NCBI GenBank assembly: GCA_032718475.1 | Contig: JAUCBJ010000865.1 | Coordinates: forward strand, 1 to 64,000 | From: Nemertoderma westbladi | Taxonomy: Eukaryota; Animalia; Xenacoelomorpha | Reading direction: 5' to 3' | DNA length: 64,000 bases | Shown: positions 20,766 through 64,000 of the stretch, one piece after another | Layout of the letters: each line of letters starts with the position of its first letter | Numbering within the stretch: the first letter of the stretch is position 1 | Position numbers and translations under genes: made by a program | The notes under the pieces: model-generated | What the model saw: only the letters and a program-made list of their open reading frames with translations | What the model was told of the DNA's origin: nothing | The model's database searches: none

Positions 20766-21386
20766 CCGTAAAATAGACTTTAATAACTTAATTGGCACGT
20801 AACACTTTTTAAATTTTAATGTTGTTCAAATTTAAACGTATTTCTGTCATTCAAGTATCGTTTAAAAGCTATTTTTTGCTCTTTAACAGATATAAATTTG
20901 CAAAATTGTAGCACATATTTAATTATACCAAACATGAGAATGTAAATCCCAAAATACATAAAAACTAGTCTTGTCAATAAAATTTGTGTTGTTTTGGAAG
21001 AGGTGGCGTCATAATAATATATCGAAAATGAAGAATTCAAATCAAGTGTATGCAAATATATTACATACCTATGTGATTCTCATATAATTTACAGTTCAGT
21101 AAAACTACTTGCAGTACATTTGCATAGATTTTATCGCGACAGGAAACCCAAGTATGAAGAGTAAGGAAATTCTATGTGTCGAAAAACCTCTGTAACCTCT
21201 TCTTTGCATAAAAAATTACATCCTGAAATTTCAGAATTATAGGCCTACTTCATATGTAATTCTGCTATAACAAAATTTGATGTTGTATTCGGCAGAACCA
21301 TCCAAAATATCATATCTATAAACGATATGAAATTGGGATAAAGTTTATTACAACTACACGAAATATAGAGACAGGCTGTTCCTTGG

Positions 21387-39061: not shown

Positions 39062-39563
39062 TTTATTAAAATAAACAGATAAAAAAACATCCAACTGTTA
39101 AATATCAGAATCAGATTAGAAATAGGACAGTAGGACTTAAACCGTGATAAGAACGACTGAACGATGAACTGGAGCTCTGACAATTCGCCCCCTTGCGGCA
39201 GACATTGGACATGGGAACTATCTGACTATATAAGTCCTGAAGTCTGTCTGTGTGTAGAATTTCTATACCTGTGACCTGTGATACACTACACTACATGTGT
39301 ACTAAAATTGGCAACAAACAAACAACAGAACAAACAAACTAATAACATAATAATACAGTAGCTGGAGGAACCCGAGCAGTGCTCCAATGATAAAATTTAA
39401 ATTTTATTTCTTTTTAATCTCGAATTAGAATTGCATGTTTTTACTTATATAGGCCTACTGTATATTTATCTTAGCTAACTGTAGTTGTCTTTCGGGATAT
39501 TTGCAATTTTTACGTTATTATTGTATTTCATAATCCGAATACAGGAATAATAGGGCAGTATAC

Positions 39564-43867: not shown

Positions 43868-44149
43868 TTAAGCGATCATCAAAAAATATTAATTCGATTA
43901 TTAAAATCTATACATTTGATCTTATTTACAATCATATTAGATAATTCATAATTATGAATTTATTAAAAATAATAAATTGTAAACTGTTTCTAATCGATTA
44001 TTCGAAGACAAGAAACCATATATCTATCCAATAATTTCAGTTTTCTGCAAATTGAGGTAGTGTCGGGTGGTTGGGGTTGGTGGTTTATGTAAATGCAGTT
44101 TAATTTTTGACAGTTTAATATTTGTTGTTGGGATGTTGTTGGTTGTTAG

Positions 44150-45956
44150 TATAGAATTATATTCCCTAAATGCCGTGGATTTTCAAAATTTTATTTTATT
44201 CGAATTAACTTTGTAAAGATTGCTTTGAGTTCTCATTAGTATTGGTTCTATCTATTGTGTATCTATCGGTCAAGTGGTTCAGTAGCTCAGTTGGTAGAGC
44301 GTTGGAAATTATATGTGTAGTAGGTATCGAGTTCGAATCCTAGTAAGTGCGAATTATTTTTTGTGCAGAATTTCAACTCATTTAAATTAACCGCTACAAA
44401 TTAATTGCATTTGTCTGTACCAATAAGGCTGTAGTTATTTGATTGTAACCAATGTCGTGCAAGTTATATATTAGCTGGACCAATAAGCTATCTTTAAAAC
44501 CTTGTTAGAACCCATAGAACAATCGAGAATTTTCTCGATTGATTGCGGCACAAATTTGCTATATAAAGGTGCGATTTGTTCATTAGTTATCAAAACTTAT
44601 TCACATCTTATATCTCAATCTTTCACAGATTATCTTATCAATATTCTGTCGTGCTTAGTTTATTCTCAGATTACATTGTATTATAATTGTGTCTTCTGTA
44701 ATAAAGTCAGAATATTCTCTCAGCTTTTCTGTTTTACTATGAATTCACTACGGTGAACAAACTCAGGGACAGGATGGCCGGCTAAAGATCGGGCCGCAGC
44801 AATGAACGGGAACATCACGGGAATGTAGACGAGAGACAACCCGCAATACCATTTAGAGTTATTCGCCCATCGCCTGAAAGGTTAGACAGCGTTCGATCCT
44901 TGCTACCTAAGTATAAGACCAAAAGATCAAAAGGTAGACGTAGTGACACGCTGCAAGCCTAAAATTACATCATAGGGACTGTACTGTCTTGATTCAGGAA
45001 AACCCACAGTAGACCTTCACATTCCTACGGGGGAGGGAGAGAGAGCAGATACTAGTACGCAGATAGGACGTAGGCACACCGGTACAAGGCATACACATTG
45101 GTTAGGGTGCAGCAAACTGTACGCTTAACTCTTGCTAAGTACAGGTGCGTGTGCGACTATTTGCAGTACGACAGTGTCCATTGCATCAGAACTTGTAGGC
45201 TAAGGGGGTTGCTGTGTTTTCACCTGAATTGGGATTGTGCCGTTCAGGCGGTAGGGCAGTTTACGCTAGGCGCAAATAAATTGAGGCTATCAGGGATATA
45301 CTAACATCTACCGTGTCCCCGCCAACGCCCTGATAGGAAGTTACCTGGACTACCTGGGTGACTAAAATTCTAGATAGGAGCCAGGATAGCTATTAGTACC
45401 CGTACGCCTACAGTAGTAAACTAACACATCTCTTCTTAGTATCAGGGACCTGGTACCTAAAATTGCCGAATTCTGGGCGTAGTATTAACCTTATGCCTGA
45501 ATTTGAGTCCTGGAAATACGCAAGAGGGGAAGGAACCTTATCATTCGTAAGTATTGGACCTACAAGTTACAAAATTAGAATATTCGTAAAATGCACACCG
45601 TACCCAGTAATTATATATGTGAAGGAGCAAAACTGTTTTGACCGTTCAGAATTAACACACGCGCGTTAGAAATTATTTACACCTCGAAATATATAAAATT
45701 AACTTTGTCCGTACTGTGCTTTGCCCGCTAGTTAGACATCTCCAAATCTGCTCTATACCTAGCTAGCGTCCCTTTGCCCAACCATATAAATCACACCGCG
45801 GCAAAGTATACGAGCCCCTTAGTCCGTCAGTGAGTCAGCCTGATTTTAGGATTCGCTGCGCGGGATTTTGTTTCATCGAAGTTTGTCTGCTCGTAGACTG
45901 TTTTCTGCCTCACTGGTTATAAGAGATCGATACTGCAATATATTCGCTTACTTAGA
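44150..45956 (+). repeat. 5' LTR (minimum extent; may continue to about 46390)
   Basis: Matches 62194-64000 with only about 2 substitutions seen by eye. It begins TATAG rather than TG. A possible end is CTCAACA at about 46390, before ACTTTGGT. Confidence 0.9.
44276..44352 (+). ncRNA. tRNA-like Pol III unit inside the LTR (second copy 62320-62396)
   Basis: A box TAGCTCAGTTGG with D-stem GCTC/GAGC, B box GTTCGAATCC, T6 terminator. Acceptor and anticodon arms do not pair, so it is not a functional tRNA. Confidence 0.6.
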
Positions 45957-46884
45957 GTTTACTGTTTTGGTGAGAAGGTCGGATTTATGATTTGATTTAC
46001 AAATTTTACAGTAAGATATTGCAGGTATTGTTACCGTCTCTTCCAATAGTAGGAATAGGCGTATCTCTTCAATTAGTAGGAATGTGTTTTACTGAACTAC
46101 GGTTCGGTAGGACTAAAGTTATTTGAAAATTTTGTATTTTGAGGTAAAAGTTTGTATTTGATTAGCTAAGTGCTAATTTTTTGAAATAAAATTTGATTTG
46201 AACCGCGTGTAAAATATTTTTGGAATTAAATACCGGTGTTTAAAAGGGTTTAAATACCATATTGTACCGGTACAAAAATTTTCGTAAAGTAAAACCTAAC
46301 TCTTTTGTTTTTCAGGATTCAGAACTCATTTCTAGACTGTAACGGGAGCAAGACCGTGTTTAGCAAGTTTGGGAGATAGATAACTCAACAACTTTGGTTG
46401 GGAAAATCGCGTTTCGTCCGCAACGTTAAAAACGGAAAGGTTCACGTTCGGTTTGTATCTGGGAATCTGTTTTTCTGGAGAATTATTGGAGTGGGTGAGT
46501 TCGAAAAGTTGCATAAATAAGTTAGGCATTACCGTATTAGTTAAAATTATTGTGGGTTCCACTGTCTCAAGTATTTATGCATTCCGTATGATTTCTTTGT
46601 TCATTGCTGAATTAGTCCGTATTATTGTATTTAATTTACCTTTTGATAACGCATATCGTTATCCGATTTATTTGTTATAAAATTGGCCGCTAGGCTAATT
46701 TTATTATATACTTATTCCGTGACATTTATTTGCTGTAAAATTGGCCGTTTAGGCTAATTTTATCCATCTGCTATAAAATCGGCCGGTAGGCTAATTTTAT
46801 AAGACTGTAATTAGTACCGTTTAGATATAAATACGGTAAACTCGATACTTTGACACTCACTTTACTTGACTTACAACTACCGAA

Positions 46885-49800
46885 ATGAGTGACAAACAAG
46901 ACTATACGAAGAACACACAAACCGACTATGACTCATGTGACGCGGATAAGTCAGCAGCGGAAGAACAACAGGGGAAGACTCGCGAGCCTACCGAACCTAC
47001 ACCGTGTGCGTCACCAGTACATCCAACGGGAGTACCGGATGCCGTAGTACGAGGCGACGGCAGGACCGAGGACTTTCTAACTGTTCCGCAACCTAGATAC
47101 AGGGAAACGGAAATGGTAAGTTCAGCAGGAAGTACAGAAAGTGTGGTTAGAAGCGTCGGAGGTTACATGGCGCATATTACCAGGAGTATTGGAGAAGGCC
47201 AACGCATATTAGACGGGTTGACCGCTCCGATGTCTCGATTCGAGTTCTACACCCTCCAGGTTAGAGTACAGAGTAAAGTATATAAGTCCGTAGATAATCT
47301 AGTTGGCCTACAAGATCTAGCTAGACAGAGACAGGACATGGATACTCAACTTAGAATCCTCGAGAAACTAATGATCACTAGAGAGAAACTGATTCAGTTT
47401 AAGTCGACGATTAGACAGATACAACAGGAACAAGCGGACCAGTTGTTAGGTGAGTCAGTTTCGGACGAATTATTACAACCCGAGGAAGAACAGGAACTGT
47501 ACCGACTGGATGGACAATTAAAACACCTGACGGACCACTTACGTATGTGCGGCGAAGACGTCGGAGATTGGGAAACCGTGCCGGAATATACGAGGGAAAC
47601 TTCACCCGTACAAATCGAATCAGCACCGGGAATACTGGACCAATCGTTGGTAAGTATTCGTAGCGAAATCTGCGAGGGAAGTATAGTCACGTCAGAAGTT
47701 GCTCGACAACAGCAAGAATTCCACCGACAACGACAAGAAATGGAAGAACAAGCTCAACTTCTAGTGATGCAGGCAGCAGTAGAGGAAGAGAAGCTACGCG
47801 TTGCGAATATAGCAAGAATCTCTCATCTACAGGAACAAGCTGAATTAGAAGCAGCTGAAGTAGAAAGGTTAGAAGTAGACATTGCCCGACAAGCGGCAGC
47901 GGCAGCGGCCGAGGTAGAGCGACGAGCGGCAGCGGCCGAATTAGAGCGACAAAACGCAGCGGCCGAGTTGGAGCGACAAACGGCAGCGGCAGCGGCCGAG
48001 GTAGAGCGACGAGCGGCAGCGGCCGAGTTGGAGCGACAAACGGCAGCGGCAGAATTACAACGAGAAAGGTTAGTTTCGGAGGCGCGGGCCGAAATGAAAA
48101 CACGACAAATAAAGGCTCAATCCGCTATACGACAAGCGGAGTTTGAGGCGCAACGACAACAAACGGAACAACGAGAGAAGACAGCTAAACTTCATTTCGA
48201 ACTCGAGAAGAAGGCGAGAGAATTAGCGAACGCTGAGGAAGATCTGGATCAAAAGGCCCGCGATAGATCGATGAGATCTCGTGACGGACATGATTTGGAC
48301 CAGTTAGAGGTAAGACATCGCCAAATTCAGGAACGGAAGAAGGAAGGAAGCGTAGGAGCACCCGGACGGGAACGACAATTAGTAAAAGACGTGTGTCAAC
48401 GATTCCCACAGGTAACTCATATGTTTGCACCGGTTACGACTAAGGAACCTGTTTCGATTGCGGGTAGTAGTGATATTTCTCCTATCCATGGTGCGACGGA
48501 ACACAGGTTTGTTATTCCGGACGAGTTTATACCGCCAAGAGCGACGTCGTCGCCCATTCCGAAAGTCAAGGTAAGTAACCCACCGATTACGGATCGTAGT
48601 AGTTTATTGACCGGACCCGCACTACTGACGACAAAACAGGTGAGTCCACCTTTGACACCTAAACCCGTAACACATTACGCTTATCCAATGACGTTTCGAC
48701 CTACAAGGCCCGTTGTTTCAAATGCTGTCATTCGCCCACCGAACCAGTTTACATCGCAATCTACGACTTCGAGGAAGACTTGTGAGCCTACCGAACAACG
48801 GAGAACAGTGGAGACGCGACCACCGAACCAGTTTACATCGCAATCTACGACTTCGAGGAAGACTTGTGAGCCTACCGAACAACGGAGAACAGTGGAGACG
48901 CGACCACCGAACCAGTTTACATCGCAATCTACGACTTCGAGGAAGACTTGTGAGCCTACCGAACAACGGAGAACAGTGGAGACGCGACCACCGAACCAGT
49001 TTACATCGCAATCTACGACTTCGAGGAAGACTTGTGAGCCTACCGAACAACGGAGAACAGTGGAGACGCGACCATTCAACCAGTTTACATCGCAATCTAC
49101 GACTTCGAGGAAGACTTGTGAGCCTACCGAACAACGGAGATCAGTGGACGATGTTCCGAAACGGAATGTTAGAATTCGAACGACGCAACGGACGCGAGCA
49201 CGTCGACCTCCATATCCAGATGATAGTAGTACTTCGAGCGAATCGGATTACCCGAAACGCGAGGTATTTAGAACAGGGGCGGCTGATGAATATAAACGCG
49301 AGCGTTCAGACAACTCCTTTGCAGATAATCCTCCACAGAATACACCAACACAGAAGGCGTTACAACCAACGGACGCAATTAGTACACAACAGTTCGCCGA
49401 CATTCTGCGACCAGTTGTTAATAAGTTGGCTCAGATCGAGGAACGTCTGGAGGAAGGTTACACCGACAGTTCGAGAAATTCCGAATTCGAACACAATAGA
49501 CACCCGAAGGAACCACAAAGACCGGTACCTTCAAACCCCATATCGTATCAGGGAAAAGCGCCAAGAAGGGATATCAACCAGTGTACCAACCAAGGACGCG
49601 AAACTCTGAACGTTGCCGAGGAGATAGCGAAATTCGCAGCCAGACAGGGATTGCCGGTACAACAACCACCGAAGTTTTCCGGTAGCTCAAAACACTGGCA
49701 TACCTTCGTAGACTATATCGAATCCCAGATCGCCGTGTGCGCCTTTACATCACGGGAGAAGTTCAATTACCTGCTCCAAACGTTGTCAGGAGAACCTAAA

Positions 49801-50826
49801 CGTTTGGCGGAGACCTTCGTTGGTGTACCGGACGCTTTCGAACTAGCGTACGATCGTTTGACTTCGATATACGGAGGTACAGTGAGTATGGCCAGGTCAG
49901 TAATAGAGGAACTCTGTAAGGGAGGGGCTATCACTAAACCCGTCGACTTACTAAAACTGGCTGACGAGATTAAGAACGCTATCACTACCTTAAGATCAAT
50001 TGGACAACTTGATTACGGGAATACCCCTACAGTTCTATTAAAGATAATAGGACGACTCCACCATCGACTCCGTCGGGAGTGGAGGAAGGTCGAATACCAG
50101 CGAGAGGAGCGAGGGGGATTCCTAAAATTAGAAGATGTGTACCTTTTAATATCCAGGGAGGCGGTAGTAGAAACTCGATCTAACTATACCGACCAGCACA
50201 TCGTGGCAGAAGGGATCACACTGCCATCCTCCAACCGACAAAAACCCCAGACAACATCCACAAAGACGGCCACTTACGCCACACCGACGGAATCACGACA
50301 ATTCTCAGACGGTAATAGAGTATCTGCGCCCATTGGGACGAAACAGACGAGACAGCAACTCAGCACCGACTTCAACGGCTGCCAATACTGCGAACATCTA
50401 GGTAAGCGGTATATTGGTCACAAGTTACGAGGTTGTCGACAATTTCGCGAGTTGAACTCGGAAGAACGACGGCTGCAGATACGGCCACTGGACTCTTGTT
50501 GGCGGTGTACGCGACACGGACACGTCCGTAAGGATTGCCCAAATACCGACACTTGTCCATCCTGTGGACGCAACCACGACGGTCTGCTCCACACAGACAG
50601 CCACACGCCGACGAAACGCTTCGCCAGGGAACACCCGGAAGCAGCAGCGAGATGTGATGCGGCTTACCGAAAACGAGAATCGAAAACGACTCCAACCTTC
50701 GTGACCCATATTGAGGATTGCTTCTCAGAACAATCCGGATCGTCGGACGAAGAATCAGAAGACGACGATGTATATTCCAATGGAGACGAACAACCGTCGA
50801 TACCTAAAGAGGTGAGGTCTCTATAG
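46885..50826 (+). CDS. BEL/Pao Gag, 1313 aa
   Basis: Long coiled-coil region; DUF1759-like PKFSG..W..F...EKFNYLLQTLSGEP; triple knuckle CQYC..H..C, CWRC...H....C and CPSC...H...LH. Confidence 0.9.
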   Translation: MSDKQDYTKNTQTDYDSCDADKSAAEEQQGKTREPTEPTPCASPVHPTGVPDAVVRGDGRTEDFLTVPQPRYRETEMVSSAGSTESVVRSVGGYMAHITRSIGEGQRILDGLTAPMSRFEFYTLQVRVQSKVYKSVDNLVGLQDLARQRQDMDTQLRILEKLMITREKLIQFKSTIRQIQQEQADQLLGESVSDELLQPEEEQELYRLDGQLKHLTDHLRMCGEDVGDWETVPEYTRETSPVQIESAPGILDQSLVSIRSEICEGSIVTSEVARQQQEFHRQRQEMEEQAQLLVMQAAVEEEKLRVANIARISHLQEQAELEAAEVERLEVDIARQAAAAAAEVERRAAAAELERQNAAAELERQTAAAAAEVERRAAAAELERQTAAAELQRERLVSEARAEMKTRQIKAQSAIRQAEFEAQRQQTEQREKTAKLHFELEKKARELANAEEDLDQKARDRSMRSRDGHDLDQLEVRHRQIQERKKEGSVGAPGRERQLVKDVCQRFPQVTHMFAPVTTKEPVSIAGSSDISPIHGATEHRFVIPDEFIPPRATSSPIPKVKVSNPPITDRSSLLTGPALLTTKQVSPPLTPKPVTHYAYPMTFRPTRPVVSNAVIRPPNQFTSQSTTSRKTCEPTEQRRTVETRPPNQFTSQSTTSRKTCEPTEQRRTVETRPPNQFTSQSTTSRKTCEPTEQRRTVETRPPNQFTSQSTTSRKTCEPTEQRRTVETRPFNQFTSQSTTSRKTCEPTEQRRSVDDVPKRNVRIRTTQRTRARRPPYPDDSSTSSESDYPKREVFRTGAADEYKRERSDNSFADNPPQNTPTQKALQPTDAISTQQFADILRPVVNKLAQIEERLEEGYTDSSRNSEFEHNRHPKEPQRPVPSNPISYQGKAPRRDINQCTNQGRETLNVAEEIAKFAARQGLPVQQPPKFSGSSKHWHTFVDYIESQIAVCAFTSREKFNYLLQTLSGEPKRLAETFVGVPDAFELAYDRLTSIYGGTVSMARSVIEELCKGGAITKPVDLLKLADEIKNAITTLRSIGQLDYGNTPTVLLKIIGRLHHRLRREWRKVEYQREERGGFLKLEDVYLLISREAVVETRSNYTDQHIVAEGITLPSSNRQKPQTTSTKTATYATPTESRQFSDGNRVSAPIGTKQTRQQLSTDFNGCQYCEHLGKRYIGHKLRGCRQFRELNSEERRLQIRPLDSCWRCTRHGHVRKDCPNTDTCPSCGRNHDGLLHTDSHTPTKRFAREHPEAAARCDAAYRKRESKTTPTFVTHIEDCFSEQSGSSDEESEDDDVYSNGDEQPSIPKEVRSL
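48733..49149 (+). repeat. In-frame 84-bp tandem repeat x about 5 in gag (28-aa unit)
   Basis: RPPNQFTSQSTTSRKTCEPTEQRRTVET repeated almost identically. Confidence 0.95.
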
Positions 50827-51763
50827 GGGTGTCGACAGCAGGCGGCGGCGGACTCGTGAGGGTCTGGGGGCACGTTAAATTGTTGTTATAGTGCAAGGGA
50901 GTCACTGAAGGCCCTCGTGTCTAACGAACCATGAATTGCCATGGTGCCGTGGTATCGCCTAGTCGGCCTGTTGCCGTACTGCCAGTCCTGTACACAGTAG
51001 GGGTGGTGGCATGGTGTGATTTGTGGTTCATGTGGCGTGGACTATGTTTTGTATGTGGGCGATCAGTGGCAGTTTGCTTGGGGCTTGGATGGTTCCATTG
51101 ACCGTCAGCTGTTCCGTTTTTTTGATACTATATGTTATTGTCTCCATGTTCAGCTGATTGGTCTTTGGTGGCATTGGAATAAACCGTCGGGTCTTGAGCT
51201 TTCTGTTACTGTGGGTACGTGAGTACACGTGATTGTATGTGTGGCCACTGCGAGTGGGTATGGGAACCCTTGCCAGTTGGACAAGACGCCGCTGGTATTA
51301 GTAGGACCATACTTTACTGCACCCCAGCATACTTTGTGCACACAAAGTTATTTTACCCTGTCGGTAAAATAAGGTACTCTCGACTCTTTTCGAGTTTCAG
51401 TCGATACAATTTTGTCCCCTCTGATTTTGTCTTTCTCGATTTTGACCCCGATTTTGTCTTTACCCGATTATGTCATCTGTGTGTGCATGGTATGCGTCAG
51501 ATTTGTGTTTACCGTAGTGTACTTGATTTCGTGAACATCTGTTGAGTACACGTGTACAGGACGGGTAAGTGGTTACTTGTTCCTAGCTTTCGAGCTAGTC
51601 AGTATTGTTGAGGAACGGTGTCCCCTCAATACTGCCGGCGAGGCAGGTGAAAACGTGTCAAAATTCCAATGTTGGGTAGCACAAGCCCACGTGGGACAAG
51701 ACCGTCGGTTAGGCCCAAGGGCGACCTTGGTGCTCGATCGCTATCGACTGGTCCACCTGCCGG

Positions 51764-54700
51764 TTGACTCTTTGTTATACTTTGAGTTGGCTCAATGTAC
51801 AGTCAGGCCACAGTAAGTTGACAGTAGCCGCCCATCTGGCTACACGTTCGACGAGCTGTGCTGGTGTGATCGGGGGACCGAAAACAGAACCCGGGAAGCA
51901 TCAGGCCACCCTCCGGCCCGGTCTGATAATAACATCTGTCGGACTGGCCCCAAGGGTGGTGGAAACACGTCCGCCTCGTGGGTGCGCCTCCGGGAGGAGC
52001 CCAGAAGGACGAAAGCGCGCGCTTCTAACCACTGACCAACTGAAGGGATTCAGTGTAATCCCGATTAAGATCACTGGCACAAAGGGGAGTAAGAGGATCT
52101 ACGCGATTCTAGATTCAGCCTCATCTCACAGTTACGTGGATGAAAAGATAGCTGACGTCGTAACGGATCTCAGACAAGGTAAACACGTCAGTTATACAGT
52201 AAGTAGTATGCACGGCCAGCGTGCAATACCAGTGACACGAGTTAAGTTGGACTTAGACTCTCTTCTTCCAAAATCGCAACACAGCGAGAGGGAGAGGTCT
52301 TTGTTGCCCTTTAGAGATTTAACCTTTGCGGCCACGAAGGACTTTAGTAACCTACTAGGTCCAGTGCCGGAACAATCTCTGGAGGACCGTAAGTATTTCA
52401 GACACCTTGGTGTACCCGAATGTCCTGTCAATTATAGATCGGTAGCAATGCTGATCGGGACGGACCAATTCAACCTACATCAGGTGTGGGAAACCAGACC
52501 ATCGGCAGTTGTAGCAGGAAACGCATACGCCTGCAGAACGCCGATAGGGTGGTATACTCGAGCGCCTGTGCGCACACTAGACGTAAGTGACGAGGAAGAC
52601 GATGTACAGAGTACATGCAGTTTATTAACTACAAACTCAATTCATTCCTTTTCACACGACGTGAACCATACTACACTACAGTCGACAAAACATGACAGAC
52701 GTGTAACTAGTATGATAAGTCACAAGGAGCAGCTAACCCACCAGGTGAGTTTAGAACTTGGGGAGAAGACGAATCAGCTAGAGATTCCATCGACGACAGA
52801 TGATAGGCTTGCGAGTCTACCTACCCCAATAACCTCAACAGTGCCCGTCGATATCGACGATGACGCGTTGAAAATTCATCAGTTGGAACAAGCCGCCTTG
52901 GACAAAGAATTAACGGAGAAGACTATCAGGTGGTTAGAACAAGATACAGCTGAACCTGGTAGCTACGAACCTTGTATGTCGGAACAGGAGAAACAATCTC
53001 TGAAGATCATGGAAGAGACTATCCGACAGACGGAGGACGGACATTACGAGGTGGGTATGTTATGGCGTAGCCAAAGTCCTAAACTTATAAATAACTACCC
53101 ACTGGCTTTAAGACGTCTACACTCAATACGACAACGTCTATTAAAAGACGAGAAAGCCCATCTGCAGTACAACACTCAGATGGAGACGTATTTGACTGAA
53201 GGATACGCTATCCGAATGACTAACCCGGAGCGAGTGACCGACCAGACATACTACCTGCCACATCACTATGTGAGACACCCCGACAAACCAGATAAAGTAC
53301 GCGTAGTCAATGACTGTGCGGCTCTATTTGAGGGAATGTCCCTCAATAGTGAGTTGATGGATGGACCGAACATGAATAATTATCTTATGGGGGTGATTAT
53401 GCGCTTCTGTCAGCGTCAAGTAGCCTTTACTTGCGACGTTGAAGCGATGTTTCACCAAGTAAAAGCGTTAGAGCGAGACAGAGACAGTTTGCGGTTTCTC
53501 TGGTATCCGGAAGGGGACTTGAGTCTACCACCAGCGACTTACCAAATGCAAGTTCGCGTTTTCGGTGCCAGAGACAGCCCAAATTGTACGATGTACGCCT
53601 TGAAGCAAGCCGCTAGAGATCAGAAACATCTGTATGACCCAGAGATAATTAGAATTGTAGAACGTGACTTTTACGTTGATGACGGATTACAGAGTTGCGA
53701 CACAGTAGAACGTGCTACAACAGTAGCACATCAATTACGGGACTGCTTGGCGGGCGGAGGTTTTAACCTCACCAAATTCGCCTCAAACAGTGCCGAATTA
53801 GTTGACTCATTCGGAACTACTGAGCGTGGAGGTGGTGACATAGACCTAGAGTTCGAACCACTACCGACGACTAAGGTGTTGGGACTCTTTTGGGACCCAA
53901 ACACAGACAACTTTCGAGTGAAGGTGAGACTGGACAGTCAAGGGAACACGCTGACCAAGAGATCATGCTTGTCAAAATTGAGCCGATTGTTCGATCCGTT
54001 AGGATTCATCAGTCCAGTGATACTGCAAGCCCGCATTTATATGCGCAGTATATGGAAAGATGGACTAACATGGGACGAGCCGATCTCATCAGACCAAGTG
54101 GACTTATGGAAGACCTGGGAGGCGGAATTATCTTCGCTAGAGGATTATTTCATACCCAGGGTTTACTTTCCATTACAGAGTACATTTCCTGACAACTTGG
54201 AACCACACTGTTTTTCTGACGCCAGTGACAACGGTTTTTGTGTGGCAGCGTATTTGCGCAGACAAGTAGAATCGGACGAGTTCGATGTTTCGCTCATTAC
54301 TTCTAAGGCTAAGACCATGCCTACTAAGTATATGACGACACCACGAGCCGAGCTACAAGCCGCGACCCTGTCAACCACCATCGTGAACCTCATACAGACA
54401 GAACTACAGTCGAGTTTACAGATATTTTATTGGACTGACGCGACGTTGGTTTTATTTTACATAAACAACGACACACTCGAATTCAAGACATTCGTAGCTA
54501 ACCGTCGCGCGGAAATTCTAGACCGATCAATAAAAGAGGATTGGCGACATTGTCCCGGACCACAAAACCCAGCTGATATTGCGTCGCGAGGAATGATGCC
54601 TGAGGAATTCTGTAAACCGGAGAACAAAGAGTTTTGGCAACACGGACCCCAGTTCTTGCAGAAATCGACACAAGATTGGCCTCCGTTATACGACAACAAG

Positions 54701-56905
54701 TCCAACACCATTCCTAAGGACGCCGAAATCAAGAAACCAAAAAAGGGGAAGACAAAGAAAAGGACGACAGCGACTAAACTCAAGAAAAAACCGAAGGCGA
54801 AATGGAAGGATATAACTTCAAAGGTTAAGAGAGGAAGACTTGCGAGCCTTTCTAAACCAGACATATCGCCAGACGGTCAACCAGATACGTTACCAGACGT
54901 ATCGCCAGACACATTACTAGACAGTCGACTAGACACTAGTAACGTACTGACGAATAATAAAGCCGCAGTTTCCCTATTGGAGCGGCCTTGTATTGACAAA
55001 CTACCAATTTTGACGCACTTGAGCAACCATAAGCATGGTGAAACCTCATGTATTACAGATGTGGGTAGTACCTACGCTAATGTAAATACAGGTGTTACTT
55101 TGCGCTCAAGAGACATACCGAACTTACAACCTATAGTGAGACCTGGGATTAATGTCGGCAGGAAAATAAGTTTACCGAAACCTGCTGACCCCATAGAGTT
55201 CAAACCACCATTAACGATCGACTTACAAAGTACCGACAATCAAGGTAAGAGGACAAAGGGGGACAAATTACTTGTAGACCCGGACGGATCAACAGTCAAC
55301 AAGGGAATACTTACCGGCGGACCCGTGGGCCCTTCTAGTAATTCAAAACCTTCCAAGTTCTCCATTGACTTACCTGATGACGTCACAAATACTTACGTCG
55401 ACCGTATCGTAAACTTAACAGACTCTTGGTCAAACGCTTGCCGAAAATTAGCGTGGATTGTACGTTTCGTACAATACGTTAAAGGCAAACGAGACTTTAC
55501 ACGTCGACTTACATTGGCTGAGATTGACAGGTGTGAGATTAAATTAATTCGCCATTACCAACTGCGATATTTCGCGCGCGAATTCACATCTATAAATCAA
55601 GGTCAACCAATCAAGTCGTCACCGATACTGAGTTGGAGTCCGATTATTTATAATGGCTTGATTTGTCATAAATCTCGGCTTCAAAACATTGACTTTAACA
55701 CGAACTTTAGGTACCCAATAATAATACCGCAACACCACGAACTACAACGTGCAATGATATTGGACGCACATTTACATCTGAAACACGCTGGAAGACATCA
55801 CTGTCTTTCCTACTTACGTACTAGATTTGTATTAATTAGACCCAGTAAAGCATTAAGTTCCGTGACACGTACGTGTATTATTTGTAAAAAGGTACATTCT
55901 AGAATAGGTACCCAAGAAATGAGTGAACTACCACAAGCACGACTTCAAGCATTCAAACCACCTTTTACAGAGACTGGAATTGATTGCTTTGGTCCCATAC
56001 ATACGAAACGTGGACGTATACTAGTAAAACGCTGGGGACTGATTTTCACATGTATGTCCAGTAGGGCAGTTCACATTGAACGTGTGATGGATCTTTCCAC
56101 CAACGCGTTTATACTAGCACTGCGGCGATTTATCGCTAGACGCGGACTAGTAAAATGCTTGTACTCAGACCAAGGGACAAACTTTGTTGGTGCTCGGAAT
56201 GAAATTGCCAGAGCCTTTAAGAAATTAGATCATGATCAAATCTCAAACGAACTGCAACCTCACAAGATTGTTTGGAAGTTCAATCCTCCAGATAGTCCTT
56301 GGAGAGGCGGAGTCTGGGAGAGACTGATTAGATCTATAAAGACAGCAATGGCAAAGGTCATTCCAGTAAACCACATATTAACAGACGACCAACTGACAAC
56401 ATTGTTTGTTGAAATCGAGGCAATACTAAATACTAGACCAATAGTATTAGTACCCGATGACAAACAATCTCAGTTTGCTTTGACACCGGCACACCTGCTA
56501 ATGCAGGCACCGACCACATTGACGCCGATTTCCATTCCAATGGAAAGCGATAGCTACGGTAGAAAAGCGTGGAAAATCACGCAACTACTAGCTAACAAAT
56601 TCTGGGAAATATGGCAAAACCATTATTTGCCCTCTATTTCTGCCAGAACAACTTGGTACAATAACACCCGCGCATTAAAGCCGGGAGATCACGTGCTGTT
56701 GGCAGAAGTGAATCTAAAAAGACGCTTCTGGATAACAGGTGTCATTTTAGCCACACATCCATCTATGGATGGAGTGACAAGAACTGTGACAGTACGGACA
56801 ATTGACGGTCGTACAGTAGACAGACCGACTCAACGTCTCGTACTTCTTGAAGAGACTCGTAACGAGTCTGGAGACTACAAATCTCCACCTAATACTAATA
56901 AATAA
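51764..56905 (+). CDS. BEL/Pao Pol (protease-RT-RNaseH-integrase), intact; true start unknown
   Basis: AILDSASSHSYV protease; YYLPHH, KVRVVND, DVEAMFHQV and FYVDD RT; FSDAS, PRAEL, YWTD and NPADIASRG RNase H; H..H..CIIC, GIDCFGP, SDQGTNF, GGVWERLI and C-terminal DGVTRTV integrase. Confidence 0.93.
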   Translation: MTLCYTLSWLNVQSGHSKLTVAAHLATRSTSCAGVIGGPKTEPGKHQATLRPGLIITSVGLAPRVVETRPPRGCASGRSPEGRKRALLTTDQLKGFSVIPIKITGTKGSKRIYAILDSASSHSYVDEKIADVVTDLRQGKHVSYTVSSMHGQRAIPVTRVKLDLDSLLPKSQHSERERSLLPFRDLTFAATKDFSNLLGPVPEQSLEDRKYFRHLGVPECPVNYRSVAMLIGTDQFNLHQVWETRPSAVVAGNAYACRTPIGWYTRAPVRTLDVSDEEDDVQSTCSLLTTNSIHSFSHDVNHTTLQSTKHDRRVTSMISHKEQLTHQVSLELGEKTNQLEIPSTTDDRLASLPTPITSTVPVDIDDDALKIHQLEQAALDKELTEKTIRWLEQDTAEPGSYEPCMSEQEKQSLKIMEETIRQTEDGHYEVGMLWRSQSPKLINNYPLALRRLHSIRQRLLKDEKAHLQYNTQMETYLTEGYAIRMTNPERVTDQTYYLPHHYVRHPDKPDKVRVVNDCAALFEGMSLNSELMDGPNMNNYLMGVIMRFCQRQVAFTCDVEAMFHQVKALERDRDSLRFLWYPEGDLSLPPATYQMQVRVFGARDSPNCTMYALKQAARDQKHLYDPEIIRIVERDFYVDDGLQSCDTVERATTVAHQLRDCLAGGGFNLTKFASNSAELVDSFGTTERGGGDIDLEFEPLPTTKVLGLFWDPNTDNFRVKVRLDSQGNTLTKRSCLSKLSRLFDPLGFISPVILQARIYMRSIWKDGLTWDEPISSDQVDLWKTWEAELSSLEDYFIPRVYFPLQSTFPDNLEPHCFSDASDNGFCVAAYLRRQVESDEFDVSLITSKAKTMPTKYMTTPRAELQAATLSTTIVNLIQTELQSSLQIFYWTDATLVLFYINNDTLEFKTFVANRRAEILDRSIKEDWRHCPGPQNPADIASRGMMPEEFCKPENKEFWQHGPQFLQKSTQDWPPLYDNKSNTIPKDAEIKKPKKGKTKKRTTATKLKKKPKAKWKDITSKVKRGRLASLSKPDISPDGQPDTLPDVSPDTLLDSRLDTSNVLTNNKAAVSLLERPCIDKLPILTHLSNHKHGETSCITDVGSTYANVNTGVTLRSRDIPNLQPIVRPGINVGRKISLPKPADPIEFKPPLTIDLQSTDNQGKRTKGDKLLVDPDGSTVNKGILTGGPVGPSSNSKPSKFSIDLPDDVTNTYVDRIVNLTDSWSNACRKLAWIVRFVQYVKGKRDFTRRLTLAEIDRCEIKLIRHYQLRYFAREFTSINQGQPIKSSPILSWSPIIYNGLICHKSRLQNIDFNTNFRYPIIIPQHHELQRAMILDAHLHLKHAGRHHCLSYLRTRFVLIRPSKALSSVTRTCIICKKVHSRIGTQEMSELPQARLQAFKPPFTETGIDCFGPIHTKRGRILVKRWGLIFTCMSSRAVHIERVMDLSTNAFILALRRFIARRGLVKCLYSDQGTNFVGARNEIARAFKKLDHDQISNELQPHKIVWKFNPPDSPWRGGVWERLIRSIKTAMAKVIPVNHILTDDQLTTLFVEIEAILNTRPIVLVPDDKQSQFALTPAHLLMQAPTTLTPISIPMESDSYGRKAWKITQLLANKFWEIWQNHYLPSISARTTWYNNTRALKPGDHVLLAEVNLKRRFWITGVILATHPSMDGVTRTVTVRTIDGRTVDRPTQRLVLLEETRNESGDYKSPPNTNK

Positions 56906-57561
56906 TTAGGAGTTTACAAATAGATTTCCACGTACCTGTACACCGTAGTAAGGACAGCGGTAGATTTCCATTGTCTTTATATGTGAACATTGAGGGTAGT
57001 ACCCTTATGTGTCACATAGGAGCGGGATTTGTAGGTATAAGAAATGGAATTCTACTTGGAACTCACAATATTGAGACATTTTCGAAATTTTAGACAATCC
57101 ATTTGGATTTGAAAATTTTTAAAATTTTCTCCAGTGAATAGATTTCAGGGTACAGTCGGGTGGAACTTAAAATTAGAGAAACAAGAGAGGAAGACTTGCG
57201 AGCCTTTCTTAAAATTTTAATTAAATTTTACACGGTCTTGTTTCAATAAGTTACGTCAAAATAGACTCCCCTATATTTATTACTAATTCTTGATTGCTTA
57301 TTTTCTGATAATAGTTTGGGATCAAAAAGTGAGTATTTTAGACTCACAGCCAGTTTAGCCCAAATTCGTTTTACTTCGGCAAAAAATTTTAGATAAGAAG
57401 CAGCGTGTCATTAAAGAAACCCTAGATCTTAGGCTATGGGTAGGAGGTTAGAGCGTTGTCGAGCCCAAAGGGCAGACGAAACTCTCACGTCTCCTCACAA
57501 CTAACTACAAACTCTGTTGTATTCCCTCTAGTAGTAATGATTATGTAACTACACCCTAATT

Positions 57562-60500
57562 ATGGAGAAAGGGATACAAGGAGAGCCGAGATGGGGATAT
57601 GATATCCAAGAGGAGGCAGCAGCGCCATTCGAAAGATTTGGAGCCAAGGATTACACTATATTTGGTATAAAAGAATTATCGGAAAGTACAGCGAAACTCG
57701 CGAGAACTAAATATGACTCGAATGTATTAAAGAGAAGGCAAAACGCATTAAACGAAAGAATCGAAAGTTTGCGCCAAACCTTCAACGAACTTTACCCGTA
57801 CGATGCTTTGTGTGATACGGGAGACATTAGCGAAGACCCCGATACTGAAATTAGTCGTTTGTATCATACCATGCAATACCTAAAGGCGCACGAACCTATG
57901 CCCGCGGTACGCGATGAATTCGATGGAATGCATCTTTACAGACGAACTCGAGGGGACGATAGAGAAACCAAGGAAGCATTTTCAGTTTATAAACTTTATT
58001 ATCAATGCGGTTCTTGTATGCGCGAACAACGAAATGCGATTCCGATGCGTTTGAATAAGGAAAATCCCGAACCGATATTGGCGAGGTGTTCGAATCATCA
58101 ACAACTACGCTACCAGGAAGGAGGGTATCCTTTATCAAATCCATATCATTCATTTGCTATGACCGGACCAAAGGCGGGAGAAACTGTCATTTACCCACCT
58201 AAGGTTGTTGAACCCGATGTATTTGAACTTACGCTGGACGAGGCGAATCAGTCAACCCGCGAAAAGAAAGAAGCTCTTAGCCTATACAGAGCCTACAAGG
58301 CTTTCGAGAAAGGTGAGATGGAAGAATGGGGTGGAAGACTCGCGAGCCTACCTTGCCATTGGACGTCACACGATCAAACTTCAGCTAAGGAGATGACACC
58401 GGAAGTTTTCGAGAGCATAAACTTTGCTCAAAACGTTATTCAGAGACTACAGATTGCATCCCCGGAGAGGCCAAGAGAAATGCAACCGTATAGTACTTCA
58501 GCTACGAAACCATTGAGTACGACACTCAATTTCCCTATTAGTATACCAGTCCGACAGGATACGACGTACGAAATACCCATCGTGGATCATCCAGAAATCA
58601 TTTCAAACTTGGAGTTTCTTCCTGCAGTTGTTTTCAGCGATATGAGTAAGATATATGATTTACGTAGACATATTACTCAAAAGGTCGTGAACAACGTTCC
58701 ACCTCATATCCAAGATTTTAAGGAACTGGATAGAGCTGGTGCCGACATAGCTCCGAGTAATCTGAAAGGATATCTAACCAAGACGATTCGTTTATGGATT
58801 GGAATCGGAACCTTCGAGTCGGATACAGATATTGCCGCAGATTGGCGAGGTAAGGTTATTCGTTTCGATGAGGATAAGGATATAGAGAAGATTTGGCAAC
58901 CTTCGGAAGAATTGTTGGACGAATGGACTAGGACGTTTAGATCGTTTCAGGAAAACGGTTATATGTTTTACGATAACGAGGGCGGCAGTCATCAGCAGAG
59001 TTTGACTTCTAAGACTATACAGATTAGAGCGGCGGACGGAGTTCTGCACGTTTTCAGTAGACAGAGGAGCGACAAACGAATGCCGATACCTCCAGCGAAT
59101 ACAAAGCGACACCATCTTATCACCGATATAGTAAAGAAGATGGACCAAGCTTGTAATATTGACGCTAGAATGCTACCGAAGATGGTAAGAAACATGATTT
59201 TAGATAAAACTGTTGTAAAGGTTGGATCAGGAGTAAGGGAGGATTTAATTAGCGACTTCGCCGGCATGACGGACAGCGATGACCGACTACCGACACCATA
59301 CGTCGACACTCGACCTCTTATTCTGTGGTCTATAGAACAGGGATATTTTCGTGAGTATAATACTCAGAAGACTGGAACTGGATACATTTCCTACCTGTTA
59401 TTCAATTGGGATTATAAGGAAGGTAAAAGAAACAAGTATATTGAAACTTATGGAGAAGGTGATACTCCAGATATGAGTGAGTTTGAATCACAGCTTAAAT
59501 GGAGAGGGTGCGTGTATTGGGCTATTACGTCACCTCCAAGAGCGGTCTTACAATATTATTTAGCAATAGAGTCGTCAGTGAATGTTTGCCTAATCGCCGA
59601 CATCGTGTCTCGGACTCTCAAAAGACATCCACTTTGTCTCGGAGAAGATCATACGTTCTACATGGAAGGGAGAATTCGTACCGACGTGTTTAGACGATTC
59701 CTTGAACCCTTCTACAACTCCGACGCTCAGTGTAATGCCTTTACTCGAGCAGGATTTAGTATATTTCGAGACGTGTATCTTCGCTGTGCGGGATCTCTTA
59801 TCGAAAGACCATCTATGTTTACATTGTTACCCTATGAAGGAGAACGTATTGTGGAAATTACGGATGAATCACGGCAGACGCGCGCGCCTATCGGTCACCT
59901 CGGTGATGATTTCAACGTAACTACTACGATCGCCGACGATCCTTTAGAGGAACTTCTTGAAATAGAAAGGAACCTCCCGAAGAAATCTCAGACGGAGATT
60001 CGACAACTTGAAGCAACAGATGCTATAGTTTGTATACAACCTTCAGAAACCTACCAACCCATAGACCCAGATGATTACGATTATAGTATGGGAGGAAGCG
60101 CTCGACCGATTGGAGATCTTATATACGAACGAGTGTGGTACCCTGCTAATACGATGTGTAGTAAATGTGGCGTCGCTGGACATCATATGGCAAAGTGCAG
60201 TGGAAAGCACATTACTACGACTCAGCTAATCTGTGGATGGTGTGGGGATCAAGGGTCTCATACCTTTTATACTTGCTGGAGATTTATGGCTCAATGTACT
60301 TATTGCAATATAAAGGGACATCGAGCATCTGAATGCCAACTAAGAGACATACCTTATGAACACGAATCTGTAAAACTCGTGAGGAAGTTATTTGATGAGT
60401 GGGAAGATTTAGCCGATGAACATGTATCAGCACAAAGAAGACGGTTTCCGATGAGAGCGCATCTCGGATTTTGGGCGGTAAATCCCCAGACGATGATGTC

Positions 60501-61287
60501 GGAAGGATATATCTCCGCTATGCCCCAATATGACGAACTTATCGAGGTTGTCGATATTTTGCCCCACGACAGCGGATTCCGAGTGGTGCGAGAGTATCTG
60601 TTACAGATTCACCCAGATAACAAAAACACGTGGAATTTTCAGAAAGTCGTTAATCGGATTACGTATGGTGAATTCGATCGTTTCCGAACTGAAAAGCGGA
60701 ACAAGGGAGCTTGGTTAACCGTCGCATGGGCGTACCGGGCCGCGTTTTACCACAAACGTATACGAGCGAGCGTATTCGAGGAAGAAGAGGTCCTAGAGGC
60801 GACGAATATACCAGCCACTCCGGTTGCGCCGTCTGCACGTCACCCTCGGGAGGACGGGCAGGGTAGGATCATACGGGTCCAGAAAGTGGGCCAACAATTG
60901 AAGAAAATTATTAATGTAGAAGAACGCAAGGGAGTTGAGCCGACTATTCGAGTTACTCGGGATACGGTATCACTTCCAAGAGAACCGGTAGGAGGATCGG
61001 GACATACACCAGCTGATCAACAGGGGGCGCAAGCTACTCTTGGGTCTGCGTCGTCCGCTTCTCACGCGTTCCCAGACGTTCTACCAACTGTAGTGACGAC
61101 TGATCGGTCACGAGGAATTGGTCGAGGTTTTGGGATGCCAAATAGACGAATTTGCGAGGAAATAGTTGCACCGTCTCTCAACGTCCCAAGTAAACCAGTG
61201 ACTCGCCCCATTAGTCCCATATCGCGAGCAAAGTCACCTGTGCGCAGTTTTCGAGGACGCGGCAGGGCTCGATCAACTAAGCGATAA
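57562..61287 (+). CDS. Element-borne ORF3, 1241 aa: DEDDy 3'-5' exonuclease-like domain, 3 CCHC zinc knuckles and RG/basic tail
   Basis: Intact ATG-started ORF between pol and the 3' LTR. Motifs FYDNEG, TIQI, LP..V..MILD..VVKVGSGVREDL, YVDT and YLAIE; knuckles CSKCGVAGHHMAKC, CGWCGDQGSHTFYTC and CTYCNIKGHRASEC. Confidence 0.75.
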   Translation: MEKGIQGEPRWGYDIQEEAAAPFERFGAKDYTIFGIKELSESTAKLARTKYDSNVLKRRQNALNERIESLRQTFNELYPYDALCDTGDISEDPDTEISRLYHTMQYLKAHEPMPAVRDEFDGMHLYRRTRGDDRETKEAFSVYKLYYQCGSCMREQRNAIPMRLNKENPEPILARCSNHQQLRYQEGGYPLSNPYHSFAMTGPKAGETVIYPPKVVEPDVFELTLDEANQSTREKKEALSLYRAYKAFEKGEMEEWGGRLASLPCHWTSHDQTSAKEMTPEVFESINFAQNVIQRLQIASPERPREMQPYSTSATKPLSTTLNFPISIPVRQDTTYEIPIVDHPEIISNLEFLPAVVFSDMSKIYDLRRHITQKVVNNVPPHIQDFKELDRAGADIAPSNLKGYLTKTIRLWIGIGTFESDTDIAADWRGKVIRFDEDKDIEKIWQPSEELLDEWTRTFRSFQENGYMFYDNEGGSHQQSLTSKTIQIRAADGVLHVFSRQRSDKRMPIPPANTKRHHLITDIVKKMDQACNIDARMLPKMVRNMILDKTVVKVGSGVREDLISDFAGMTDSDDRLPTPYVDTRPLILWSIEQGYFREYNTQKTGTGYISYLLFNWDYKEGKRNKYIETYGEGDTPDMSEFESQLKWRGCVYWAITSPPRAVLQYYLAIESSVNVCLIADIVSRTLKRHPLCLGEDHTFYMEGRIRTDVFRRFLEPFYNSDAQCNAFTRAGFSIFRDVYLRCAGSLIERPSMFTLLPYEGERIVEITDESRQTRAPIGHLGDDFNVTTTIADDPLEELLEIERNLPKKSQTEIRQLEATDAIVCIQPSETYQPIDPDDYDYSMGGSARPIGDLIYERVWYPANTMCSKCGVAGHHMAKCSGKHITTTQLICGWCGDQGSHTFYTCWRFMAQCTYCNIKGHRASECQLRDIPYEHESVKLVRKLFDEWEDLADEHVSAQRRRFPMRAHLGFWAVNPQTMMSEGYISAMPQYDELIEVVDILPHDSGFRVVREYLLQIHPDNKNTWNFQKVVNRITYGEFDRFRTEKRNKGAWLTVAWAYRAAFYHKRIRASVFEEEEVLEATNIPATPVAPSARHPREDGQGRIIRVQKVGQQLKKIINVEERKGVEPTIRVTRDTVSLPREPVGGSGHTPADQQGAQATLGSASSASHAFPDVLPTVVTTDRSRGIGRGFGMPNRRICEEIVAPSLNVPSKPVTRPISPISRAKSPVRSFRGRGRARSTKR

Positions 61288-61389
61288 AAGGGAGGGCAAG
61301 GGTGGACGGAAGACTCGTGAGCCTTTCTTATGATTTGTGATTTATTTGAATTATATGTTTTATATTTAGAAAGTTTTGTATTCTGAAAG

Positions 61390-61960
61390 GGACTCATATT
61401 TAGTAAAAACTTATATTTTATATTTGTGCTTATTCCAAACTTATGCAATTTGTATTGTTCCGAATTTATGAAATTTAGAAAGTTTAGAAGGAACTTATAT
61501 TTGAAAGATTTATGTTTCATATTTGAGATGCAAAGGTTTATATTATTCTAAACTTATGCAGTTTATATCTATATTTAGTAAGACTACCCAAAAGAGAGTT
61601 TATATTTGTAAGAATTTATATTTATATTTGTAATTATTCCGAACTTATACAATTTATATTATTCCAAACTTATGCAATTTGTATTGTTCCGAATATTATG
61701 CAATTTATATTTTATAAGTAGTATTTGTACCTAAAGAGAAAGTTTTATAGACAGAAAATTTTGTGCTCAGAAAGACTCATATTTGTAATTATTCCAAACT
61801 TATGCAATCTACATTTAGGTACGAAAGTATTTGTAATTACTTGAATTTATGCAATATTTGGGATGCAATAGTAGATGGAAGACTCGCGAGCCTTTCTTAT
61901 TGTTTTCATTTATTTGTATTTGTAATTGTTTGAATTTATGCAATATTTGAGATTCAATAG
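61390..61960 (+). repeat. Degenerate AT-rich tandem repeats in the element 3' UTR
   Basis: Recurrent ATTCCAAACTTATGCAATTT and GACTCATATTTG units. Confidence 0.6.
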
Positions 61961-62193
61961 ATTTATATTGGTGAATTTAATTTAGATTTATATTGTACTT
62001 ACTTAGTAAAACCTTAAATACGTAAAGTTTGAATTTGTAATTATTTTTGTATCGAATCATTACGTAGAAAGGAAGTATTGTTTGAAACTTAATTGTAAAT
62101 ATGTAAGTACGCCCTAAGTATTCTATAGTTTGATTGATTATTGGTGAAAACCGTATATTTTATGCACGATAATATCCTGTTTTCATGGAGCGG

Positions 62194-64000
62194 TATAGAA
62201 TTATATTCCCTAAATGCCGTGGATTTTCAAAATTTTATTTTATTCGAATTAACTTTGTAAAGATTGCTTTGAGTTCTCATTAGTATTGGTTCTATCTATT
62301 GTGTATCTATCGGTCAAGTGGTTCAGTAGCTCAGTTGGTAGAGCGTTGGAAATTATATGTGTAGTAGGTATCGAGTTCGAATCCTAGTAAGTGCGAATTA
62401 TTTTTTGTGCAGAATTTCAACTCATTTAAATTAACCGCTACAAATTAATTGCATTTGTCTGTACCAATAAGGCTGTAGTTATTTGATTGTAACCAATGTC
62501 GTGCAAGTTATATATTAGCTGGACCAATAAGCTATCTTTAAAACCTTGTTAGAACCCATAGAACAATCGAGAATTTTCTCGATTGATTGCGGCACAAATT
62601 TGCTATATAAAGGTGCGATTTGTTCATTAGTTATCAAAACTTATTCACATCTTATATCTCAATCTTTCACAGATTATCTTATCAATATTCTGTCGTGCTT
62701 AGTTTATTCTCAGATTACATTGTATTATAATTGTGTCTTCTGTAATAAAGTCAGAATATTCTCTCAGCTTTTCTGTTTTACTATGAATTCACTACGGTGA
62801 ACAAACTCAGGGACAGGATGGCCGGCTAAAGATCGGGCCGCAGCAATGAACGGGAACATCACGGGAATGTAGACGAGAGACAACCCGCAATACCATTTAG
62901 AGTTATTCGCCCATCGCCTGAAAGGTTAGACAGCGTTCGATCCTTGCTACCTAAGTATAAGACCAAAAGATCAAAAGGTAGACGTAGTGACACGCTGCAA
63001 GCCTAAAATTACATCATAGGGACTGTACTGTCTTGATTCAGGAAAACCCACAGTAGACCTTCACATTCCTACGGGGGAGGGAGAGAGAGCAGATACTAGT
63101 ACGCAGATAGGACGTAGGCACACCGGTACAAGGCATACACATTGGTTAGGGTGCAGCAAACTGTACGCTTAACTCTTGCTAAGTACAGGTGCGTGTGCGA
63201 CTATTTGCAGTACGACAGTGTCCATTGCATCAGAACTTGTAGGCTAAGGGGGTTGCTGTGTTTTCACCTGAATTGGGATTGTGCCGTTCAGGCGGTAGGG
63301 CAGTTTACGCTAGGCGCAAATAAATTGAGGCTATCAGGGATATACTAACATCTACCGTGTCCCCGCCAACGCCCTGATAGGAAGTTACCTGGACTACCTG
63401 GGTGACTAAAATTCTAGATAGGAGCCAGGATAGCTATTAGTACCCGTACGCCTACAGTAGTAAACTAACACATCTCTTCTTAGTATCAGGGACCTGGTAC
63501 CTAAAATTGCCGAATTCTGGGCGTAGTATTAACCTTATGCCTGAATTTGAGTCCTGGAAATACGCAAGAGGGGAAGGAACCTTATCATTCGTAAGTATTG
63601 GACCTACAAGTTACAAAATTAGAATATTCGTAAAATGCACACCGTATCCAGTAATTATATATGTGAAGGAGCAAAACTGTTTTGACCGTTCAGAATTAAC
63701 ACACGCGCGTTAGAAATTATTTACACCTCGAAATATATAAAATTAACTTTGTCCGTACTGTGCTTTGCCCGCTAGTTAGACATCTCCAAATCTGCTCTAT
63801 ACCTAGCTAGCGTCCCTTTGCCCAACCATATAAATCACACCGCGGCAAAGTATACGAGCCCCTTAGTCCGTCAGTGAGTCAGCCTGATTTTAGGATTCGC
63901 TGCGCGGGATTTTGTTTCATCGAAGTTTGTCTGCTCGTAGACTGTTTTCTGCCTCACCGGTTATAAGAGATCGATACTGCAATATATTCGCTTACTTAGA
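62194..64000 (+). repeat. 3' LTR (truncated by the window end)
   Basis: Near-identical to 44150-45956; preceded by a short purine-rich GGAGCGG. Confidence 0.9.

Follow-up and report, generated by a model that had tools for sequence, protein, structure and literature searches.

Contig JAUCBJ010000865.1 of Nemertoderma westbladi, analysed here over positions 1-64,000 of the forward strand (the 64,000-nt window), carries a long terminal repeat (LTR) retrotransposon of the BEL/Pao group with an intact third open reading frame (ORF3), whose middle most likely encodes a highly diverged DEDDy exonuclease of the WRN/EXD2 type, followed by three CCHC zinc knuckles. The frame runs unbroken over 57562-61287, downstream of gag and pol and between the two LTRs, in the position of env; the remaining five frames across this interval hold 49-83 stops each. 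The best 19-residue hydropathy of the protein is 1.38, with neither a membrane helix nor a hydrophobic N-terminus, and in the absence of a membrane or signal segment ORF3 is not an env gene. A first-pass annotation of the window had described such an unbroken 1241-aa frame, free of signal peptide and transmembrane helix, and had read exonuclease, knuckle and arginine-glycine (RG) motifs in it. The frame, its hydropathy and the places of the named motifs agree with that description, the motifs starting at 58966 (FYDNEG), 59014 (TIQI), 59218 (KVGSGVRED), 59299 (YVDT), 59554 (YYLAIE), 61111 (RGIGRG) and 61249 (FRGRGRAR).

A search of 1.84 billion representative proteins with ORF3 returned three matches, one of which, P0002 (E 1.6e-5), is a true homologue; P0001 and P0003 were dropped as homologues, their similarity being confined to the knuckles. 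P0002 is a 558-aa protein on a 7.5-kb contig, with the full D-E-D-D-Y set and knuckles, and it may mark a wider undescribed family. Exonuclease and knuckles follow one another in the same order in both proteins (28% identity), and the DTE, D and YLRGD of P0002 pair with the DNE, D and YLAIE of ORF3. The exonuclease pair scores 128, a value that none of 1000 shuffles attains (the highest is 63), and the ORF3 block after the knuckles, compared alone with P0002, is not significant (105 of 1000 shuffles as good). In the ESM Atlas all 10 structure rows for P0002 are PF01612-bearing clusters, with template modelling (TM) scores by target of 0.73 and 0.70 for two stand-alone domains. The top three feature matches of P0002 are also PF01612-bearing, headed by a euglenozoan cluster with PF01612 and zf-CCHC (0.87), and the ORF3 domain itself finds PF01612 as its best named match (0.85, on 50% of members).

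Comparison with family profiles points to the same residues. A profile of 33 bacterial WRN/EXD2-like proteins matches ORF3 at ExoII (P 0.0012, 0 of 500 shuffles as high), and RNase D and Pol I profiles give no such match above shuffles on ORF3. In a profile-profile comparison with the WRN/EXD2-like group, ExoI, the strand after it and ExoII are aligned in register (P 1.4e-4, none of 100 column shuffles); RNase D gives a P of 0.66 and Pol I one of 0.12, the three profiles having unequal depths (33, 5 and 31 in the order WRN/EXD2-like, RNase D, Pol I). ORF3 resembles the EXD2/WRN/Nibbler (Mut-7)/EXD1 group (PF01612) in that ExoI, the second strand, ExoII and the motifs that follow are in register with the WRN/EXD2-like proteins, and differs from the group by its low identity (at most ~20%), two insertions of 25-35 aa, a glutamate at ExoIII, the three knuckles and an N-terminus of 440 aa. 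A weak match on ExoI was also seen with the NCBIfam DnaQ epsilon model (E 0.042).

Several results weigh against this assignment. In Pfam, which the first-pass annotation had proposed as a check, PF01612 is unmatched for ORF3 up to E 10 and is missing from P0002 as well, and ORF3 gave no HRDC match. The PDB sequence search gave no exonuclease better than E 1.2; of the 8 sequences matched, EXD2 alone is an exonuclease. All Atlas feature scores are below 0.9, and the structure rows lie below the bar for naming a family. Among 64 alignment settings, ExoII D561 is in register in all 64, ExoI in 31 and E670, on the ExoIII aspartate, in just 20. A guided AlphaFold model (block values of the predicted local distance difference test, pLDDT, of ~70-85 in parts of the core) matches EXD2, NrnC, EXD1, Nibbler and WRN, but it is circular, because the alignment was chosen to include DEDD proteins, and it speaks for compatibility only; the single-sequence model has a pLDDT of 31. 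Of the kinship first proposed, the WRN/EXD2 side is borne out by P0002 and the profile tests, and no single member of the group, Mut-7/Nibbler included, stands out as the orthologue; on that circular model Nibbler, EXD1, WRN, RNase D and Pol I all fall within ~2 Z. The PHROGs search found nothing for ORF3, and word-based protein searches gave 0 matches for ORF3, only itself for P0002 and 0 for the two-sequence alignment. Related loci were found neither in metagenome contigs nor in viral contigs, and tblastn against phages gave no useful match. A resemblance by chance, the domain having another fold, would account for the low pLDDT of the single-sequence model and for the lack of any curated profile above threshold; it is nevertheless very unlikely, given that the P0002 alignment, the Atlas structures and the profile and profile-profile tests converge on the same residues, and the predicted exonuclease fold of ORF3 is favoured with high confidence.

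Within the domain, D471 and E473 of ExoI and D561 of ExoII are supported as predicted catalytic residues by P0002 and by the profile tests. ExoIII probably corresponds to Y666-x3-E670, an alignment-unstable placement with glutamate where aspartate is usual. Catalytic activity in spite of the glutamate at the fourth acidic position appears moderately likely. Downstream, the CX2CX4HX4C spacing is exact in two of the three knuckles and one has X5; their Pfam zf-CCHC score (17.7 bits) is below the cut-off of 20.8. They bear a weak resemblance to retroviral nucleocapsid, and blastp against the Gag of the element itself gave no match at E 1. RG dipeptides are present as first described (7 in 1241 aa, 4 of them in the last 141), without any RGG, and an RGG-type domain is not supported.

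ORF3 is carried by a recent insertion, as the LTR copies 44149-45956 and 62193-64000 (both +) differ by only 2 mismatches in 1808 bases (99.9% identity), and it shows no sign of having inserted independently. The spacers that flank it contain no terminal inverted repeat (TIR) or target-site duplication (TSD); inverted matches between them reach at most 10 bp and direct ones 14 bp, the latter belonging to the 20-bp motif that recurs across the element (described below) and whose presence inside ORF3 indicates a history shared between ORF3 and the element. Other copies were compared through contigs from four sequencing runs, in which depth is not equal to copy number. Contigs of three DNA runs cover ORF3 as well as gag and pol, and two of the four runs contain contigs that match ORF3 at 81-84% identity (sister copies at ~82%), one of which spans ExoI-ExoII with 57 differences and 0 gaps in 334 nt. 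The end of pol and the spacer are also covered by similarly diverged pieces, and no contig joins these to the ORF3 pieces. ORF3 holds none of the 12 indels listed of 101, and 1, synonymous, of the 40 substitutions listed of 1236; among the listed substitutions 24 of 26 in gag and 3 of 8 in pol are synonymous. ORF3 is present in other copies, some of which have lost the exonuclease by internal deletion (57701-59734, 57721-59846); pol is deleted in other copies too. The deleted copies are what would be expected if ORF3 were a passenger that brings no benefit, either a host gene captured recently or another mobile element, and the youth of the element leaves little time for decay. This explanation is very unlikely, as no close cellular relative appears among the 1.84 billion representatives, TIR and TSD are absent around a frame that contains the motif of the element, and ORF3 is open over 3.7 kb and found in the ~82%-identical sisters.

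Translation of ORF3 from a spliced subgenomic RNA is likely, judging from the candidate acceptor upstream of its ATG. Only 2 of the 504 YAG sites between the LTRs (46315 and 57531) combine a branch-point match with a strong pyrimidine tract, by a filter that was set after both had already been spotted by eye. Between the acceptor at 57531 and the ORF3 ATG there is a short frame of three codons that includes two ATGs. The leader (46000-46315), with its donor-like sites and strong acceptor, suggests alternative splicing of the gag-pol RNA too. Retroelement ORF3s are typically expressed from spliced messages (PMC5408684).

The 20-bp near-palindrome GGAAGACTYGYGAGCCTWYC recurs in gag, pol, the pol-ORF3 spacer, ORF3 and the 3' untranslated region (UTR), with 11 exact 17-mer copies in one orientation at 7 independent sites and two degenerate copies (the scan gave 16 rows, 3 of them reverse readings of the same sites). 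It was found neither in the other 44 kb of the window nor in viral contigs; 0.19 matches are expected at three mismatches. Only the two central Y and the WY positions vary. CpG decay was considered as the source of this C/T variation and is doubtful, the observed/expected CpG ratio being ~1 across the window. Since the motif is read in two codon phases (0 and 1) in coding DNA and also occurs outside ORFs, it is a nucleic-acid signal. A stable RNA hairpin is not supported by the weak folding energies of the sense strand (-0.4 to -4.2 kcal/mol, z below -2 in 1 of 7), so that recognition of the dyad by a dimeric protein, or pairing between RNAs at this site, is at least as likely.

The motif bears on whether ORF3 could be a weakly active or inactive RNA/DNA-binding adaptor, in the manner of Egalitarian and EXD1 and with a Rev-like logic, that would recognise the 20-bp dyad and help the nucleic acid of the element to be transcribed, exported, transported or protected. 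The restriction of the exact copies to the element, one of them within ORF3, is in keeping with this, and so is the fourth acid, glutamate where P0002 carries aspartate. The exonuclease-like domain of Egalitarian binds stem-loops without catalytic residues (PMC13186709), and an Egalitarian I-factor RNA complex is among the structures listed in the guided-model structure search; VANC proteins bind same-orientation motifs spread via tandem repeats (PMC5735166). An adaptor is nonetheless unlikely: ORF3 and P0002, 28% identical, have three acids and the tyrosine in common, which suggests catalysis, the sense-strand hairpins are weak, and the motif could be bound by a host transcription factor or insulator protein.

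The preferred reading takes ORF3 as an intact accessory gene of a young BEL/Pao element, probably translated from spliced subgenomic RNA, whose product would be a WRN/EXD2-type 3'-5' exonuclease with three knuckles that deliver the ends of single-stranded RNA to the active site. Such a nuclease might erode host silencing RNAs directed at the element. Counter-silencing by a knuckle-fed RNA exonuclease is, by analogy, the likeliest function of ORF3, and as a tentative proposal it is held with somewhat less than even confidence. Mature Piwi-interacting RNAs (piRNAs) are methylated and Piwi-bound and hence poor substrates, which together with the loss of the exonuclease from some copies speaks against it. 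Likewise, Rodriguez 2017 reported that copy number was not clearly tied to the presence of a DEDDy ORF3 (PMC5408684). There is precedent for knuckles feeding a DEDD site in trypanosome RND (PMC9181182) and for a parasite DEDD nuclease as counter-defence in Lassa NP (PMC3429428), and the recurrence of DEDDy ORFs in retroelements with different copying chemistries would imply a role outside replication chemistry (PMC5408684).

Alternatively, ORF3 could be an active nuclease for the cycle of the element itself, trimming its RNA, primer or cDNA at the 3' end in the particle, with the knuckles as a second nucleocapsid. The fold evidence (P0002, Atlas and profile tests) is shared by this explanation, to which the weak nucleocapsid resemblance of the knuckles also lends itself. 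It is rather unlikely, as ORF3 does not form part of gag-pol, its knuckles are without similarity to the Gag of the element, and BEL elements are, to our knowledge, mostly able to replicate with no gene of this sort. For the rotifer ORF3 (PMC5408684) and the exonucleases of Dada transposons (PMC3706591) a role of this kind has been put forward. Quite improbable is a two-part, sequence-specific form of counter-silencing, in which ORF3 would recognise the 20-bp dyad, distributed by the element over its gag, pol, ORF3 and UTRs, and its nuclease would clear silencing RNAs, or protect transcripts, only at motif-bearing copies.

The features of the element are given in Table 1; the candidate splice acceptor, the 20-bp dyad and the break between gag and pol are not mentioned in the first-pass annotation. 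It is assigned to BEL/Pao by the DUF1759 of gag (E 2.4e-11) and the Peptidase_A17 (2.9e-40) and DUF5641 (1.7e-20) of pol, where the order is protease, reverse transcriptase (RT), RNase H and integrase, the RT being identified by motif and without a Pfam RT match. BEL/Pao LTR retrotransposons are expected to have TG...CA termini and a TSD. Here the shared LTR sequence opens with GTATAG, and the 3' terminus is beyond the window. No clear polypurine tract was seen upstream of the 3' LTR. The gag-pol of this copy is interrupted by a 1.2-kb stretch (50800-52017) not common to other copies, which is bypassed by joining contigs in 4 of 4 runs, yet itself well covered, and in which no TSD, TIR, long ORF or Rfam match was found. 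The RNase H region of pol is separated from the integrase by a long low-complexity K/P/S-rich stretch (54600-55400), which holds one copy of the 20-bp motif. ARAGORN called no tRNA within the element, and Rfam gave 0 matches over 43.5-64 kb. Each LTR contains a tRNA-like A-box/B-box pair (44283-44340 and 62327-62384), called by neither program, which could be an RNA polymerase III promoter or an insulator.

Table 1. Positions of the BEL/Pao element features in the 64,000-nt window
Feature	Position	Strand	Remarks
5' LTR	44149..45965	+	~1.8 kb; begins GTATAG rather than TG; right end approximate
Primer-binding-site-like stretch	45968..45985	+	TGG start; from sequence, inferred from position
Candidate branch point, pyrimidine tract and splice acceptor before gag	46270..46315	+	donor-like sites near 46015 and 46030
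gag	46888..50826	+	DUF1759, knuckles, 84-bp tandem repeat ~48730-49150
20-bp motif copy in gag	46973..46992	+	
20-bp motif, five copies in gag	48773..49128	+	one in each 84-bp tandem unit
Interruption between gag and pol	50800..52017	.	~1.2 kb; reversed AT skew
pol	52019..56905	+	protease, RT (YVDD), Pao Peptidase_A17 region, integrase, DUF5641
Degenerate 20-bp motif copy in pol	52802..52821	.	minus strand scores better
20-bp motif copy in pol	54833..54852	+	
20-bp motif copy in pol-ORF3 spacer	57189..57208	+	
Candidate branch point and splice acceptor before ORF3	57500..57531	+	CTAAC 57501-57505, AG 57530-57531; 31 nt upstream of ATG
ORF3	57562..61287	+	1241 aa from ATG, intact, no stop
ORF3 N-terminal ~440 aa	57562..58878	+	no family or homologue found; missing from P0002
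20-bp motif copy within ORF3	58333..58352	+	
Likely WRN/EXD2-type DEDDy exonuclease domain	58906..59625	+	D471 (58972), E473 (58978), D561 (59242), Y666 (59557), E670 (59569)
Three CCHC knuckles	60157-60198, 60232-60276, 60295-60336	+	CX2CX4HX4C, CX2CX5HX4C, CX2CX4HX4C
P/S/G-rich ORF3 tail	60862..61284	+	basic at end; four RG dipeptides, no RGG
20-bp motif copy past ORF3	61308..61327	+	21 nt past ORF3 stop
20-bp motif copy in 3' UTR	61877..61896	+	
3' LTR	62193..64000	+	continues past window edge; end and TSD outside view

The rest of the window holds an RNA polymerase II largest subunit gene with heptad repeats (27306-35637, -), a xylosyltransferase in one open frame (36725-39097, -), a frameshifted gypsy-like pol remnant (16975-19995, -), two RT-bearing non-LTR fragments inverted to each other (7-621, -, and 21281-22360, +) and elements resembling miniature inverted-repeat transposable elements, with 15-bp subterminal repeats (5300-15350). 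The polymerase subunit and xylosyltransferase genes are consistent with an animal host.

DEDDy ORF3s, which the first-pass annotation had mentioned from Ty3/gypsy-like elements of bdelloid rotifers, are indeed in print (PMC5408684): they are known in the bdelloid LTR retrotransposons Juno and Vesta and in Athena/Terminon (PMC5408684, PMC6431247, PMC5718144, PMC6338049), and a DEDDy domain is known in Dada DNA transposons (PMC3706591). The ORF3 described here is like the rotifer one in being an ORF of its own that follows pol, occupies the env position and lacks membrane segments, and unlike it in its host, BEL/Pao rather than Ty3/gypsy-like or Penelope-like (PMC5408684). The acids are D-E-E-D in the rotifer ORFs and D-E-D-E with the tyrosine, and D at ExoII, in this ORF3; its triple knuckle has no counterpart in the available description of rotifer ORF3, the two having been compared by description (PMC5408684). 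Trypanosome RND, which is RNase D-like, likewise joins a DEDD nuclease to substrate-feeding CCHC fingers; unlike ORF3 it is a cellular mitochondrial enzyme with four fingers, and the likeness is one of analogy (PMC9181182). With VANC of the VANDAL DNA transposons the element shares an accessory protein and a short, one-orientation, partly tandem-repeated motif; VANC is an unrelated protein of a plant DNA transposon with non-coding motifs of 8-9 bp, whereas the 20-bp dyad here is also in coding DNA (PMC5735166).

No BEL/Pao DEDDy ORF3, and no printed case of the exonuclease-knuckle architecture in this group, was found in the accessible literature (PMC8220671 included), most subscription journals and Repbase being outside its scope, and no paper linking a transposon-encoded exonuclease to piRNA anti-silencing was found there. 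What is new is the BEL/Pao host group, the WRN/EXD2-like branch, the triple-knuckle layout common to one orphan homologue and the element-wide dyad motif; DEDDy ORF3 cargo as such was already known elsewhere. How animal transposons withstand silencing by small RNAs is a largely open question, and retroelement DEDDy ORF3s are described as having no demonstrated function (PMC5408684). The BEL/Pao case adds a retroelement group with such cargo, apparently from another exonuclease branch, and points to repeated selection. The domain boundaries, the catalytic residues, the aspartate-bearing P0002 and the candidate motif make the question testable in vitro. The two-part system, if true, would be the first in an animal LTR retrotransposon and an RNA-level counterpart of plant VANC.

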